Of a DNA stretch of 40,474 bases, positions 16,273 through 39,812 are shown in pieces. The stretch comes from a virus (lineage: Duplodnaviria > Caudoviricetes). A program made the translations under genes and the position numbers. A model generated the notes under the pieces. It was not told the DNA's origin and did not search any database. It was given only the letters and a program-made list of their open reading frames with translations. The first letter of the stretch is position 1. Each line of letters opens with the position of its first letter. The stretch lies in the IMG/VR virus record IMGVR_UViG_3300006127_000031, positions 1-40,474 of that record, one strand, 5' to 3'.

Positions 16273-17274
16273 ATGAACCTGATTCAGGCAACCTTTTTAA
16301 ATTTCTTACCTCCGAAAAGAAAACAGACACCAAGCGGCTGGATCAGCTTCAATGCGCCCTGTTGTGTACACAACGGCGACAGAGTAGACAAACGGCAACG
16401 CGGTGGAGTAAAACTAAGCGGAGATGACGGTTTTCAGTATCATTGCTTCAATTGTGGTTTCAAAGCCGGTTGGATGCCTGGAAAATTGCTCAGTAAAAAT
16501 ACCAAAAGTCTCATGCGTTGGTTAGGCATGCCAGACGACGAAGTTAACAAACTTTCACTGGAAGCACTCAAGAACAAGGATGAATTAGACAAAACACCTA
16601 TACCACTAAATTTCGCATTAGAACCGAAAAATTTGCCAGAAAATTGCCTTTCTATCGAAACTTGGATCGATGAAGGTTGTGAGGATCCTGATTTTTTAAA
16701 TGTCATTGGTTACATCCTTGACAGAGGTATGCAACTTGATTGGTACGACTGGATGTGGTGTCCTGAAGCAGGATATAAGGATCGTGTTATCGTGCCATTT
16801 TTCCACGAAAATGTGGTCGTAGGCTGGACAGCCAGAAAAATCAAGGACGGCAAACCAAAATATTTGACATCGAGTCAACCAGGCTATGTTTTTAATTTAG
16901 GCGCACAAGCACACGACAGGAAATTTGTCATCGTAGTCGAAGGACAGTTTGATGCTATCGCGATAGATGGTGTGGCGATCGGTCATAATGAGCCAAATGA
17001 TGCCCAAATTATGAGAATTACTTCGTTAGGCCGAGAAGTTATCGTAGTTCCAGACAATGACAAGCCGGGAGCAAAATTAATCAAAGCGGCCATCGATAAT
17101 CGTTGGTCAGTGAGCTTGCCAGACTGGGGACCAGATGTAAAAGACGTTGCAGATGCAGTGAAGAAATTTGGCAGGATTTACACATTTTTCACGATTTTGA
17201 AGTATAGAGAGTCGGGAGAGATAAAAATTAAACTACTCAAAAAACAATTAGAAAACAAACATGACGACAGATAA
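16273..17274 (+). CDS. gp61: DNA primase (gp61/DnaG-type, Zn-binding + TOPRIM)
   Basis: PCCVH...HCFNCG zinc site; VVEGQFDA, PDNDKPG and KDVAD motifs. Confidence 0.9.
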   Translation: MNLIQATFLNFLPPKRKQTPSGWISFNAPCCVHNGDRVDKRQRGGVKLSGDDGFQYHCFNCGFKAGWMPGKLLSKNTKSLMRWLGMPDDEVNKLSLEALKNKDELDKTPIPLNFALEPKNLPENCLSIETWIDEGCEDPDFLNVIGYILDRGMQLDWYDWMWCPEAGYKDRVIVPFFHENVVVGWTARKIKDGKPKYLTSSQPGYVFNLGAQAHDRKFVIVVEGQFDAIAIDGVAIGHNEPNDAQIMRITSLGREVIVVPDNDKPGAKLIKAAIDNRWSVSLPDWGPDVKDVADAVKKFGRIYTFFTILKYRESGEIKIKLLKKQLENKHDDR

Positions 17275-18697
17275 TATACCAAACTACAGCGCCGAGATAC
17301 AGAGGTTATATCTCGAAATGTTCATGAGTGATGCTGAGACATTTGTGCGTTGTCAGAACATATTTGACCCCGAAAATTTCGACAGGAAACTCCAGGATGT
17401 TGCGGCATTTATCAATGCCTATGTGAATGAATATAAAATTATGCCAGAGGCACAGATCGTCAATGCGTCTTGCGGCACAGACCTAAATCCGGTAGAATTA
17501 CCTAAGGAAAACTATGATTGGTTGATGGCAGAATTTGAGACATTTTCACGCCATAAAGCACTTGAAAGGGCGATTTTAAAATCAGCTGATTTGTTGGACA
17601 AAGGCGATTATGGTCCAGTAGAAAAGATGATTAAAGACGCTGTACAAATCAGTCTACAGCGTGACATGGGTACAGATTACTTTGAAGATCCTAGACAGCG
17701 ACTTGAAGCATTGAAGAACTCAAATGGGCAAATTAGCACTGGTTGGCCGTCGATCGATAAGAAATTGTATGGTGGATTTAATCGAGGTGAATTAAACATT
17801 TGGTGTGCGGCATCAGGAGGCGGTAAGAGTTTGTTCCTTGCAAACTTGGGCTGTAACTGGGCATTGAACGGATTAAACGTCTTGTATCTAACATTTGAGT
17901 TGAGCGAAAATTTAGTGGCTATGCGTATGGATAGTATGATGACTGATGTACCGACTCGTGAAATTTTTAAGAATCTCGAAGACGTCGAACTCAAGGTTAG
18001 GATGCTAGGCAAGAAAGCAGGAAGCATACAAATCAAGTATATGCCTAGTGGTAAGACTGCGAATGATATCCGTGCATATCTAAAAGAATATCAAGTGAAA
18101 AAAGGATGCAAACCTGACATTTTATTGATCGACTATTTGGACTTGATGATGCCGATGTCAGTTAAAGTTAGTCCAAGCGATCTTTTCGTCAAAGACAAAT
18201 ATGTGTCAGAAGAACTGCGTAACTTGGCTATGGAAACGCAAGCGATTGTGTGTACAGCTAGTCAGTTAAATCGTGCGGCAGTGGAAGAAATTGAGTTTGA
18301 TCACAGTCATATTTCAGGTGGCTTATCTAAGATCCAAACAGCAGATAATGTGATTGGTATTTTTACAAGTCGTGCAATGAAGGAACGTGGACGCTATCAA
18401 ATCCAGTTTATGAAGACTCGTTCTAGTAGCGGAGTTGGACAAAAAGTTGACTTGGAATTTGACGTTGATACTCTGAGAATTAAAGACTTGGGTGACGAAG
18501 AAAGCGGCGACGGATTCAAGAAACCCGGAGCATCGATTTATGATAGCTTGAAAAAATCAAGCACAGTTGTAAATCAAGATACAGGTGAAATTAAATCTGA
18601 TCCTACTGAAGGAATTCCTGTGAGCAAAATCAAAGGTGTAACAGGTAATTCAAAGATTAGAGAACTACTGGCAAATATCAATCCAGAAAAAGATTAG
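17261..18697 (+). CDS. gp41: replicative DnaB-like helicase (gp41)
   Basis: STGW..ID, AASGGGKS, TFEL, IDYLDLM, ASQLNR, KTR motifs. Confidence 0.95.
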   Translation: MTTDNIPNYSAEIQRLYLEMFMSDAETFVRCQNIFDPENFDRKLQDVAAFINAYVNEYKIMPEAQIVNASCGTDLNPVELPKENYDWLMAEFETFSRHKALERAILKSADLLDKGDYGPVEKMIKDAVQISLQRDMGTDYFEDPRQRLEALKNSNGQISTGWPSIDKKLYGGFNRGELNIWCAASGGGKSLFLANLGCNWALNGLNVLYLTFELSENLVAMRMDSMMTDVPTREIFKNLEDVELKVRMLGKKAGSIQIKYMPSGKTANDIRAYLKEYQVKKGCKPDILLIDYLDLMMPMSVKVSPSDLFVKDKYVSEELRNLAMETQAIVCTASQLNRAAVEEIEFDHSHISGGLSKIQTADNVIGIFTSRAMKERGRYQIQFMKTRSSSGVGQKVDLEFDVDTLRIKDLGDEESGDGFKKPGASIYDSLKKSSTVVNQDTGEIKSDPTEGIPVSKIKGVTGNSKIRELLANINPEKD

Positions 18698-19254
18698 AAC
18701 AAGCTAGATATTTTTTGATTAACACAGTGACTGATCGCACGTTGCCACTGTTCTTCGCCTGTGCCGCTTAGGCAAACATCAATCGAGGCAGGCGCAGTAA
18801 GCCAACGATGATCCGGAGTCCACGGACTTATACCGCTCATTTCTCCGTCCAGTTGTCCTGCACTCCAAGCCGCTAGTCCAATACCAGGTCGCCAAATAGC
18901 AGGTCCATCATTTCCGGCTATAGCAGCCAAGATACTGATATCTCCAGTGATACCCAGATCGGGTGTAATTTGTAAGGTGCTCGGACTGGACCAATCCATC
19001 GTGTGTACTACGTGTACCCTGGCAGGCTCAACAGGCCCGCCTACGTAGACATTCGAAAATCCATCGTACTCGATCCCAGCGGCCTGCATGACTGTTTTCA
19101 TAGTTACAGCATTAGCTTCTTTATTCACTACTACTCCCCATGCACCATTAACTCCGTGTTGCGCCAGCAGGATAACCGCTTTGGAGAAGTGGGGGCTGTT
19201 GTTTTTCGGTTGGGAAACTAGTACATTTCCCATGAGTGAATTAAAACTGGTCAT
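18694..19254 (-). CDS. yqgE: YqgE/AlgH family protein (DUF179)
   Basis: P.....F.KAVILL..H...GA.GVVVNK, VYVGGPVE, G.AAW.AGQL..E, WL.APA motifs. Confidence 0.92.
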   Translation of the reverse strand: MTSFNSLMGNVLVSQPKNNSPHFSKAVILLAQHGVNGAWGVVVNKEANAVTMKTVMQAAGIEYDGFSNVYVGGPVEPARVHVVHTMDWSSPSTLQITPDLGITGDISILAAIAGNDGPAIWRPGIGLAAWSAGQLDGEMSGISPWTPDHRWLTAPASIDVCLSGTGEEQWQRAISHCVNQKISSLF

Positions 19255-23493: not shown

Positions 23494-24324
23494 ATGTACA
23501 AGTTTAAACCAGGCCCATACGAGCCAGCAGCCATCGAACCGGGCAAGCCCCTAACATTCTCACAAACATGGACGTTTGGTGACATCATCTACTCCATGAT
23601 TCCCATACGCTTGCTAGGCGGTGGCGAGTTTTATCTACGCTTGGAAAATCTAGACAACTTGTGTAAGACAGTCATAGGTTGGCCCGACGGGGGCACACAC
23701 TCAGGACGCATGCGCCAGAAAGATTTCGACTTGCTCAAACCTCTAATCGAAGCACAGGACTATATCACCAAATGGGCAGTATGGAACGGTGAAGCCATCA
23801 CACATCCTCTAGACAATATCTGTTGCTGGTTCTACGGCAATCGCATAGACAAAGGACATTACGGACGGCTCTACGCATTAGCAGTGGGCTTGGACCCAGA
23901 TCAGTGGGAACCTGCGATCACCCAACCATGGCTAACCTTGGGCAACAACGAACCAATACGTGTGCCAGGAAAACACATAGTGATATCTAAAACTGACAGA
24001 TACGGTAACGGACAAGTACATCAGGTATGGCGCAACATGGTTGAACAGCAGTGGAACGAGCAGGCCCTATTCGTAGGCACTGCCGAAGAACACGCGGCAT
24101 TTGAGCAGGATTTCGGCATCAAGATCCAGTACTATCCAACTCGGGATCTGCTAGAACTAGCACAGGTCATAGCGGGCTCAGAACTGTACTTGGGCAACCA
24201 ATCAGTGGGCATGGCTATAGCACAGGGTCTGGGCGTAAACTTCTGGTGCGATCACCGCAAGGACAACTGTACACTAGAAGGTTGTGAAACTTACTTTAAA
24301 CGAGAAAATGGCTATTATTTCTAA
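23494..24324 (+). CDS. glycosyltransferase, GT9 (heptosyltransferase-like, GT-B)
   Basis: FGDIIYSMIPIR and LLELAQVIAGSELYLGNQS.GMAIA.GLG motifs. Confidence 0.8.
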   Translation: MYKFKPGPYEPAAIEPGKPLTFSQTWTFGDIIYSMIPIRLLGGGEFYLRLENLDNLCKTVIGWPDGGTHSGRMRQKDFDLLKPLIEAQDYITKWAVWNGEAITHPLDNICCWFYGNRIDKGHYGRLYALAVGLDPDQWEPAITQPWLTLGNNEPIRVPGKHIVISKTDRYGNGQVHQVWRNMVEQQWNEQALFVGTAEEHAAFEQDFGIKIQYYPTRDLLELAQVIAGSELYLGNQSVGMAIAQGLGVNFWCDHRKDNCTLEGCETYFKRENGYYF

Positions 24325-37965: not shown

Positions 37966-38130
37966 ATAAGCTCCCTGTAGTGTTTAAAGAACGCAGTAAT
38001 AACTTCTTACTGTATGCATACAGTATAACATGATTTTACCAAACTGTCAACCCCCCAGGAAAGACCCTACAGACCACCGGGATATAGATCTAGGGGTTGA
38101 CTTTTGGTAAAACCTGTGCTATACTATATG

Positions 38131-38510
38131 CATAATAAGAAAGCAGGTAAACTGTATGAGGCGTCGATGGGACTTGTCCGGGGTGGACGTGGAGGGTGCG
38201 CGAAGGGTTTGGCCCCGGCGCTGAGGTCAAGGAAACAGGCCCAAAGGGCCCATTTCCAGTATGTGTCTCTGCTGAGGTCCAGTCCACATCCCCTGCGGTT
38301 ATTGGGTAACGAATACGTCTCAGTCCGGCTGAACACCGGCTACCGCTTCGCTTAATCGTCCGCGACAGCAAATACTCCTGCCCGGCTAGCAGAGCGTCTC
38401 TCGACGATTCTGATCACTGCCGTGTCTACGACATGTCCATTAGTCCAGTGGTCTCCAGCATGTGTTCAGCACCTGGTGTTCCTTCCCTCTGGATTCGCTT
38501 TCAGCTTAGG
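38131..38510. ncRNA. candidate large structured non-coding RNA (about 350-380 nt)
   Basis: Boxed promoter on + at 38097-38125; GC-rich; many nested helices; no credible ORF. Confidence 0.6.
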
Positions 38511-38518
38511 GTTTAACT

Positions 38519-38593: not shown

Positions 38594-38613
38594 TATATGT
38601 TATTATAGCAGGT

Positions 38614-39615
38614 TTACTTGCGTAATCCTAGACTCGCCTGTAGCTGTTGTGCGGCATTGAGCTTTTTCACATGCTCGTTCTGCCCTTGCTTGGTAGCACT
38701 CATAAAGCTGGTAGGAACCCCACCCTTGGTCTGCCCAAAGGGTGTGTAGGTTTGCCCTGAGCCCGCACCATTGGGTTTTTGGCTAGACTCCTGCTGACCT
38801 GCAACGGGGTTTTGCTGTGGTGCACGATTCAACCCTGTGTCCGCTAGTGAACCCACTTGTTGACCCGCTGGATCCGCTACATCGACGAACTCCCACGGCC
38901 CTAGCAGTACTGGATTGCCATCTACACGGCGATTCCACTTGCGTAGGTAAAACAGTTCAGGCCCCGTCCATAGCTTGAGCTGATCGATCAGGTTAGCGAA
39001 CACTGAGTCAATGAGGATACACTGTTCCGCACCCTCGATGATCTTGAGCCAATCGAATACGCTATCAGTGATCTCGGTAATCTCTATCAGCTGTACATCT
39101 GGCTCGATCATAGATAAGTCTATGTCATAGCGCAGGTCACTGGCTTGATTCTGGTAAACCATGTAACGGGGTTTTTGTACTAGTTGCTTATACAGTGCGT
39201 CCTCACGGGCAGGATCCCGTACTATACAGCGATCTAGTTCCCACTTTAGACTGAACGGTAAATTCATAGCCGCATACTTGTACTGATCGAACTTGCACTG
39301 TGCGAACAGGCTAGGGTTGGTCTTCTCTGGATGTGAGCTGAGATACTGATATAACCATAGTATATCCGCCTCAGCAATGCCTAGTGCCCGCAACTGTTTA
39401 ACGGGGTTTTCATAAAAGAACTCGCCTCTCTCATCTACGGGCACAGCCAACCATGAAACCCAGGGAGCGGCCCGCATCATCTGCTCATAAAAGGGCTCAC
39501 ATACGGGCCAATAGACTTCATAGCCCTGGTCCTTGTAATGTCGAGCGATTGGTAGTGCTATAATGATATCACCAAGTCCTCGACTCTGTATGATACCTAC
39601 TTTGTTGTTCTGCAT
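38614..39615 (-). CDS. GT9-like glycosyltransferase with a disordered Q/G-rich C-terminal tail
   Basis: IIQSRGLGDIIIALPIA..Y...GYEV.W and DWLKIIEGA...ILIDS motifs. Confidence 0.75.
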   Translation of the reverse strand: MQNNKVGIIQSRGLGDIIIALPIARHYKDQGYEVYWPVCEPFYEQMMRAAPWVSWLAVPVDERGEFFYENPVKQLRALGIAEADILWLYQYLSSHPEKTNPSLFAQCKFDQYKYAAMNLPFSLKWELDRCIVRDPAREDALYKQLVQKPRYMVYQNQASDLRYDIDLSMIEPDVQLIEITEITDSVFDWLKIIEGAEQCILIDSVFANLIDQLKLWTGPELFYLRKWNRRVDGNPVLLGPWEFVDVADPAGQQVGSLADTGLNRAPQQNPVAGQQESSQKPNGAGSGQTYTPFGQTKGGVPTSFMSATKQGQNEHVKKLNAAQQLQASLGLRK

Positions 39616-39617
39616 AC

Positions 39618-39812
39618 TTAACACCTTTCTGGATATTGTGAACAGTACTTACCGCCCCATCCATCAGGTGCCCGTACATATTGACGCTGTTGCCCAGAGT
39701 ACGGACACACATCCCACGTACGACACTGCGGATAATAGCGAGCTATCTGCATGTCAGCACAACCTGTAAGAGCTAGTATACAACTTAAAGTGAAAAGATA
39801 TACTATACGCAT
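39618..39812 (-). CDS. small lipoprotein (64 aa)
   Basis: Signal peptide with lipobox LTGC. Confidence 0.7.
   Translation of the reverse strand: MRIVYLFTLSCILALTGCADMQIARYYPQCRTWDVCPYSGQQRQYVRAPDGWGGKYCSQYPERC

Follow-up and report, generated by a model that had tools for sequence, protein, structure and literature searches.

A conserved, uncatalogued structured RNA sequence beside a CAU tRNA of large phages, and a separate promoter-linked element facing it

The window analysed here, that is the whole stretch of 40,474 nucleotides of IMG/VR record IMGVR_UViG_3300006127_000031, is a linear virus record, 11% complete, that carries terminase and T4-type single-strand-binding genes. Genomes of its relatives are up to 345-356 kb long in records of 94-96% completeness. 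Over the part of the window beyond about 26 kb the genes lie on the minus strand, with consensus promoters ahead of most of them, and 19 of the 21 strong consensus promoter sites in the window face the same way. The sole tRNA of the window bears a CAU anticodon and is much more diverged, in the D-arm, anticodon stem and T-arm, than the mutually close tRNAs of the relatives. Its putative promoter, which has no consensus -35, lies just past the stop of an upstream 336-aa gene. The protein encoded at 38614-39624, the usual upstream neighbour of the tRNA and of the RNA sequence described below, gave no match in Pfam or PHROG; like the protein at 23494-24324, it begins with a G-x-G-D-I motif, presumably as heptosyltransferase-like enzymes do. 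Further away, a 186-aa ORF (18694-19254), without a PHROG match, encodes what we take to resemble a YqgE/AlgH-family protein.

A preliminary description of the 388 nt beyond the tRNA had drawn attention to a lone boxed promoter facing the other way and to several possible helices, and had proposed a single large structured RNA read on the plus strand toward the tRNA. Its raw observations hold. The promoter, TTGACT-17-TATACT with GGTAAAACC, is present and is the only boxed plus-facing site among the 21; the second plus-facing site (9014) lies inside coding sequence and has no box. The complementary stretches named are all there, with GCTGAACAC at 38328-38336, one base from the position quoted, and the direct repeat GCTGAGGTC occurs at 38220 and 38271. 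The absence of a match to a known family was also borne out, an Rfam search of the window giving nothing over the region. On the other hand, the idea of one structured piece did not survive comparison with shuffled sequences, the fold being no better than chance on the plus strand (z=-0.18) or the minus strand (z=-1.33). Since neither the single-sequence fold nor Rfam was informative over the region, homologues became decisive.

Loci were fetched by means of two neighbouring proteins, then by sequence patterns and then by model search. The protein-fetched loci match the region in two non-overlapping ways, either over its first 80 nt only or over 38215-38517 only, and the second set, read in the tRNA direction, begins with AAACC a few bases after the CCA end. 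The conserved unit so delimited, here called RNA B, starts in the window 4 nt past the CCA end of the CAU tRNA and has a terminator-like hairpin at its other end. A profile built from six relatives, with the window excluded, recovers window positions 38514-38260 with E=3.9e-17. The first internal pattern yielded three true relatives among 14 loci, and a metagenome pattern yielded 22 loci, made up of two identical to the window, one repeat of L013, four new members and 15 chance matches; relatives of RNA B are present in one run recorded as a lake water metagenome. The resulting set holds 33 distinct sequences in three sequence groups. L373, nearly identical to L381, was left out, as were L124 and L160, which carry after their CAU tRNA another structured-looking non-coding sequence of about 230 nt with an AAACC start that does not fit the family descriptor presented below.

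Thirty of the 33 members follow a CAU tRNA at a distance of 2-47 nt, a count biased upward by the tRNA-anchored patterns through which many members came to light; another member lies behind a Leu tRNA and two have no tRNA. RNA B is patchy among the relatives, many CAU tRNAs being followed by other sequence. A group-2 covariance model, which detects group 2 only, gave three matches in the whole records of 50 relatives and none in the two records that are at least 90% complete. In the part of the bacterial and archaeal genomes that was scanned (41 of 64 parts), none of 120 pattern loci matched this model. In a search of a cultured-phage collection, the best 20 of 127 records showed tRNA matches only, none of them spanning 80% of the query. 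The literature searched held no description of RNA B; fragments may sit in the alignment archive or supplements of PMC10690425, which lay outside the search, and the candidates listed in the part of that paper used here are 30-151 nt long (Fremin et al., PMC10690425).

Several features indicate that RNA B is read in the tRNA direction, and not on the plus strand that the preliminary description had favoured. In the paired columns of group 2, its six later-added members included, G-U cells number 99 against 11 A-C cells when read this way, and the GNRA loops are correct on the minus strand only. The two tRNA-free copies point to the same orientation: L379 has its own TTGACA-17-TATAAT promoter upstream and a clear hairpin and U-tract terminator downstream, and in L384 an extended -10 box stands 18 nt ahead of the RNA. 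In 30/33 members the unit is preceded, at the matching place, by a -10 box that points in the tRNA direction. By comparison, only 13/33 have a reverse-facing consensus promoter within 400 nt downstream of the RNA end and 3/33 have the element, named A below, that this promoter precedes in the window. Read-through from the tRNA promoter, which the preliminary description had kept as a fallback, is therefore the version that the evidence supports. By comparative criteria, the minus strand of the window from 38514 to 38257 is a real, conserved, uncatalogued structured non-coding RNA sequence of about 260 nt. The preliminary description had thus correctly placed a large structured RNA beside the tRNA, in a setting like that of the phage RNAs GOLLD and ROOL, but was mistaken about its strand and its driver.

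Table 1. Features of the tRNA-RNA B region and of the facing promoter element (window coordinates).
Feature	Position	Strand	Basis or remark
Extended -10 promoter (TG-n-TATAAT), putatively for tRNA and RNA B	38602..38610	-	Sequence; activity presumed
tRNA, CAU anticodon, CCA encoded	38593→38519	-	ARAGORN calls Met; Ile2 is the label of the preliminary description
RNA B core, ~258 nt, AAACC to ACUG, group 1	38257..38514	-	Leave-one-out HMM, architecture descriptor
P1 (38511-38508/38294-38291), P5 (38346-38342/38299-38295), P2 (38505-38503/38352-38350)	38291..38511	-	Per-member helix table
P3 arm with first kissing loop (38493-38489/38448-38444; 38476-38473/38458-38455)	38444..38493	-	Helix table
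Pseudoknot 1, loop-loop kiss: CUGAAC 38469-38464 with GUUCAG 38334-38329	38329..38469	-	Compensatory changes
P4, 3-bp stem and NUA triloop (GUC-GUA-GAC)	38424..38432	-	Conservation
GNRA-capped hairpin (CGUC-GAGA-GACG), then variable arm	38395..38406	-	Loop conservation
P6 (38339-38336/38328-38325)		-	Loop holds GUUCAG of the kiss
P7	38319-38308	-	
Pseudoknot 2: CUGAG 38323-38319 with CUCAG 38276-38272 in P8 loop	38261..38323	-	Compensatory changes
P8, bulged A	38289-38285/38265-38261; 38282-38280/38271-38269	-	
Terminator-like hairpin, short interrupted U-tract (GUUUCCUU)	38229..38257	-	-19.8 kcal/mol on minus
Boxed consensus promoter, reverse-facing	38097..38125	+	Would drive element A, not RNA B
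Element A core: TCGAT (TCGAA in the family) followed by GGGGTGGACGTGGAGGGTGC	38164..38199	+	Conserved instances

The predicted fold runs, from the 5' end, through AAA, P1, P2, the P3 arm with its loop, P4 with its NUA triloop, P2', AA, P5, P6, P7, P5', P1', P8 with a bulged A, ACUR and the terminator. Between P4 and P2' a GNRA hairpin is inserted in groups 1 and 3, followed in group 1 by a variable arm. P1 is continuous with P5 on the 3' side. Two pseudoknots tie these elements together: in one the P3 loop pairs with that of P6, in the other the bases that immediately follow P6 pair with the P8 loop. Beside P2 lies a loop, GAA/AUUA in the window and GAA/AGUA in four relatives, the latter form being what we take to be a bulged-G pattern. 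The unpaired bases that do not vary are the 5' AAACC, the NUA loop, the AA before P5, AGGAA, the bulged A in P8 and ACUR.

In group 1 (the window and six relatives, seven sequences from about four lineages), a hand-made table records compensatory changes in P2, P5, P6, P7, P8 and both pseudoknots. To illustrate this, P2 occurs as GCU/AGC, GCC/GGC and ACC/GGU, the kiss as CUGAAC/GUUCAG in the window and as CUGAUA/UAUCAG in five relatives, and pseudoknot 2 as CUGAG/CUCAG, CUAGG/CUUAG and CUGU/ACAG. The GNRA hairpin is capped by a GAGA, GCGA or GUGA loop in 7/7 sequences. Group 2, the largest (initially n=16, 66% column identity), is richer: over 63 pairs, 91.9% of the cells are paired against 35-39% in slid controls, and 55 of the 63 pairs show double changes. 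Its kiss is 100% paired with double changes in 6/7 pairs, three of them significant, and its second pseudoknot varies between AGG/CCU, AAG/CUU and GAG/CUC, with one significant pair. The U and A of the P4 loop are invariant in 16/16 sequences, a pair of the stem is significant, and the same hairpin recurs in groups 1 and 3. The six later-added members pair in 329 of 355 cells. When group 2 with these six included, as distinct from the group of the window, was submitted to an all-pairs G-test against our own tree-aware null, 16 of the 16 column pairs with E<=0.05 were pairs of the model, three belonging to pseudoknot 1 and one to pseudoknot 2. The covariation among homologues that the preliminary description had named as a check was thus found, in group 2. 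At the level of such comparisons the conservation and orientation of RNA B and, through covariation, its paired helices are established.

The three groups are united by architecture, start word and position, because neither the covariance model nor the profiles gave a significant match between groups. The group-2 model scores 5.5 bits on RNA B of the window (E~1, P8 only) and, among 23 other loci, finds only P8 of L013 (E=0.001); sequence profiles gave no cross-group match at all. The best window match of this model (17257-17456, 16.6 bits) lies inside a helicase-like ORF and was set aside as chance. An architecture descriptor, written with the window in view, fits 22 of the 30 sequences tried, from all three groups, and none of 1500 shuffles; it misses L049, five group-2 members, L124 and L160. 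The same helix order and both pseudoknots thus recur in groups 1-3, with the closing helix, the loop-loop kiss, the NUA triloop and the second pseudoknot as their common layout. On the window the descriptor starts at 38514 of the minus strand, with looser starts at 38513 and 38528. By eye, group 3 (L121, L088, L048, L049) combines a long P2 as in group 2 with the GNRA hairpin and the CUGAC-type kiss of group 1.

With this fold at hand, the helices proposed earlier can be placed. The 9-bp helix of GCTGAACAC and GTGTTCAGC is real, but it corresponds to the loop-loop kiss of the minus-strand family. Likewise, the hairpin at 38231-38257 exists, but looks like the end of a minus-strand transcript, being more stable on that strand than on the plus strand (-15.2 kcal/mol). 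The AATCGTC/GACGATT helix competes with the conserved GNRA hairpin. As for GGGGTGGACGTGGA/TCCAGTCCACATCCCC, it bridges two elements that adjoin in only 3/33 members of the family, and on the B side the six closest relatives have a different sequence. In this genome only, 38180-38193 (the element A core) and 38278-38293 (the P1'/P8 strand) form an imperfect inverted repeat; according to the predicted minus-strand fold, a transcript extending past the terminator could pair back through these segments and unfold P1 and P8.

The 3' end of RNA B varies in quality. A U-rich tract follows the core in 25/33 members, a crude test that the window fails, and a clear terminator is absent in four group-1 relatives; a terminator scan of the window did not call the hairpin listed in Table 1. 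Concerning expression, one lake-water metatranscriptome contains two contigs, of 309 and 338 nt, that join tRNA sequence to a group-1 relative of RNA B. With 22 differences, the former matches the end of the tRNA plus 175 nt of the L013 RNA, and the latter consists of the tRNA followed by a group-1 start. Their lengths weakly suggest a tRNA-plus-RNA unit, as they come from relatives in one study, give no strand, ends or level, and may include DNA. Run X1 contained 0.07 of the RNA words of the window and zero contigs over the RNA body, which has no bearing on expression either way.

The plus-strand promoter is, to judge from its conserved surroundings, real but part of a separate short conserved element, element A (TCGA…GGGRTGGACG). 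In loci L001-L105 a consensus promoter stands 15-75 nt ahead of 38 of the 62 distinct GGRTGGAC words, for a background of 3.5% of positions; each of these 38 promoter-linked instances has TCGA 12-19 nt on its upstream side and carries a G-rich tail. In 32 of 37 cases among the relatives the element is oriented against the neighbouring genes, as in the window. Five larger records hold 1, 1, 2, 0 and 0 copies of its 10-mer, at promoter-linked places or near-identical counterparts; the count alone is not enriched, because a reversed control word also occurs twice. Folding of 38132-38260 gave z=-1.05, with no convincing structure, and no conserved fold was seen by eye. At least two DnaA-box-like 9-mers lie within 500 nt of 7 of the 38 instances, against 0.7% of random windows, and no such array was found near element A in the window.

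By analogy with phage T4, the transcript of element A may be a short, G-rich, unstructured RNA that primes a T4-type R-loop replication origin, a tentative proposal that we hold at somewhat under even odds; the remainder is shared by two other readings, a small RNA that acts by base pairing and a site in the DNA that follows the promoter. T4 origins such as oriF, oriG and oriE rely on R-loop RNA made from a promoter, an early one in the case of oriE, and are described as having an A+T-rich unwinding element and no common sequence motif (PMC3016281). Element A would resemble them in a promoter whose short RNA primes replication. It differs in its fixed G-rich core and its frequent DnaA-box-like neighbours, and where T4 R-loops form in A+T-rich DNA, the window offers only about 30 A+T-rich bases after the promoter and then G+C-rich DNA. 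A CsrA-type GGA sponge was rejected, the element having only 1-2 GGA words and no hairpins. In this genome a transcript of element A would meet RNA B at the hairpin 38231-38257.

Other repeats were noticed around these elements in relatives. Arrays of two to nine DnaA-box-like 9-mers, candidate origins or DnaA sinks, lie in the same intergenic region after RNA B (L379, L398, L391, L397) or after element A (L033, L038, L061, L063, L066, L079, L084). The palindromes TGTGGC-N7-GCCACA and TGTTG-Nn-CAACA and the word AAAGACCC stand beside early promoters (L013, L015, L047, L050, L063 and others) and look like operator sites. Just past the RNA of L121, the opposite strand carries tandem GGATGT/GGACGT words that amount to a repeated version of the element A core.

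RNA B was then compared with known RNA systems. Rfam 15, run on the window and 23 member loci, gave tRNAs and sub-gathering chance matches only, none over RNA B; covariance models of ROOL, raiA, manA, tmRNA, RNase P, group I and II introns and riboswitches did not match it, and ARAGORN found no tmRNA. A circularly permuted RNase P and a group I intron, suggested by short words, were also rejected by eye, the pairings that their consensus requires being absent. The closest parallel is GOLLD, a phage RNA found near tRNAs, with a Met tRNA upstream of its solved example (Kretsch et al., bioRxiv 10.1101/2024.12.08.627333) and with a structure that includes kissing loops, pseudoknots and bulged-G motifs (bioRxiv 10.1101/2024.12.08.627333; PMC12286853 supplement 1). 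RNA B shares with GOLLD (RF02032) the phage location near tRNAs, the kissing loops and the pseudoknots, but GOLLD runs from several hundred to more than 800 nt and is divided into a 5' and a 3' domain, whereas RNA B has a core of 206-285 nt and then a terminator. RF02032, which models the conserved 3' domain, matched none of 30 records including the window, and recovered 18/18 control GOLLD loci at 231-326 bits. Profiles of the 5' or whole GOLLD regions and of the RNA B groups did not match in either direction, and the RNA B model reached at best 7.7 bits (E>=0.1) on 10 GOLLD loci. As far as these searches tell, RNA B is not GOLLD. A remote kinship appears rather unlikely to us; on its side are a match of model R1 to L534 that starts at the GOLLD AAAC (6.5 bits, E=0.28) and short junction words that, by eye, the GOLLD 5' region has in common with group 2 (AAAC, GAUAWA, UGAG, AUAGGAAUAA). 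GOLLD-type loci are themselves common in IMG/VR (L526-L645), with about 310 stretches bearing one 5' motif, and tmRNA genes adjoin 3 of 18 checked loci.

ROOL, another phage and prophage RNA near tRNAs, likewise has multistem junctions and pseudoknots (PMC5737381) and forms cages through kissing loops (bioRxiv 10.1101/2024.12.08.627333). At 581 nt on average it is larger than RNA B, it has six junctions as well as three pseudoknots (PMC5737381), and its Rfam model does not match. The manA motif of cyanophages, under 200 nt, is also reported to form cages through loop-loop kisses (bioRxiv 10.64898/2026.07.01.735769), so an RNA of the size of RNA B could assemble; manA sits in 5' UTRs, whereas RNA B ends in a terminator and has no Rfam manA match. 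In GOLLD, ROOL and manA the loop-loop contacts are formed between molecules (bioRxiv 10.1101/2024.12.08.627333; bioRxiv 10.64898/2026.07.01.735769), and in alignments a covarying loop-loop pairing looks alike whether it is intra- or intermolecular. Finally, theta ribozymes are minimal HDV-like RNAs at the 3' ends of phage tRNAs whose cleavage site adjoins the tRNA (PMC10879173). RNA B has only this place in common with them, being about 260 nt long, with another helix order, a gap of 2-47 nt to the tRNA and no Rfam HDV-like match. Judged by its predicted architecture, RNA B represents a new structural class in a setting of a familiar kind.

What could such an RNA do? We propose, with a probability of roughly 0.55, that RNA B is a conserved RNA of about 260 nt, likely co-transcribed with the CAU tRNA, that adopts the two-pseudoknot fold and acts in trans as a binding or self-assembling RNA. 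Transcription of the tRNA and RNA B would start from the extended -10 box, ordinary host 3' processing would free RNA B from the tRNA, and its 3' end would lie at the 38257-38229 hairpin. Locked by the two pseudoknots into the predicted compact shape, RNA B would be stable in the infected cell and would bind a partner or assemble with itself. Its putative partner might be a host translation factor or an anti-phage factor, a guess suggested by the tRNA linkage and the patchy presence. A trans-acting accessory role would fit a sequence that is non-coding, lies outside genes, carries start and end signals of its own, has a patchy distribution and gave no group-2 match in the 41 of 64 parts of the bacterial and archaeal genomes scanned. 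Among the possible activities, the analogy with GOLLD, ROOL and manA leads us to rank binding or self-assembly first; the invariant junction bases place catalysis second, and ligand binding comes third.

RNA B could alternatively be a ribozyme of a new fold that cuts itself, the tRNA precursor or another RNA. Two pseudoknots, several junctions with invariant unpaired bases and a location at the tRNA 3' end like that of theta ribozymes (PMC10879173) would suit this role. We consider it unlikely, given that the gap to the CCA end is so variable, that two copies are tRNA-free and one follows another tRNA, that no Rfam ribozyme or intron model matches and that RNA B is not inserted in a gene. One could also think of a ligand-binding aptamer, working either as an attenuator of the riboswitch type or as a sponge that soaks up a host signal molecule. 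A kissing loop, a loop of bulged-G type and a terminator immediately after the fold are indeed features that recall riboswitch aptamers. However, the downstream genes have their own consensus promoters, no common downstream gene was seen and an unsystematic look revealed no common antiterminator, so that this proposal appears improbable.

Another reading would have the structure act as single-stranded DNA, in an origin region common with element A. The DnaA-box-like arrays after the RNA in 4/33 members and the abutment of element A on RNA B in 3/33 speak for it; nevertheless it is very improbable, since the 99 G-U cells, the GNRA loops, the promoter and the terminator all suit an RNA and two near-complete relatives carry element A without a group-2 match. 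The single RNA of about 390 nt read from the plus-strand promoter up to the tRNA, as initially proposed, is more improbable still. The full-consensus promoter could read on antisense to RNA B, and many helices pair on either strand, but the descriptor fits no plus-strand start, the G-U cells would become A-C, the promoter is missing in 20/33 members and the plus-strand fold is no better than its shuffles. That the region encodes the 83-aa ORF 38104-38355, whose frame is open in the window, or another small protein is scarcely credible, since the start lies inside the promoter, Pfam has no match and none of the six frames stays open in any of the seven group-1 sequences.

Few bacterial and phage RNAs combine multistem junctions with pseudoknots, and those that do have been argued to perform sophisticated biochemistry (PMC5737381). 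For GOLLD and ROOL there are structures and no assigned function, and RNA B adds to the same tRNA-linked setting a class that is much smaller. Its 33 natural variants, a fold backed by covariation and a length that is cheap to transcribe, probe, image and assay for catalysis make the function of such phage RNAs more testable. A bolder picture, which we regard as possible but doubtful, is that of a new class of double-pseudoknot RNAs of about 210-290 nt in large phages, co-transcribed with a CAU tRNA, catalytic or cage-forming and maybe a free-standing cousin of the GOLLD 5' region, with the plus-strand promoter and its G-rich primer marking the unmapped origin of the phage group. Element A would in any case be a starting point of its own in the search for the replication origin of these phages of about 350 kb.
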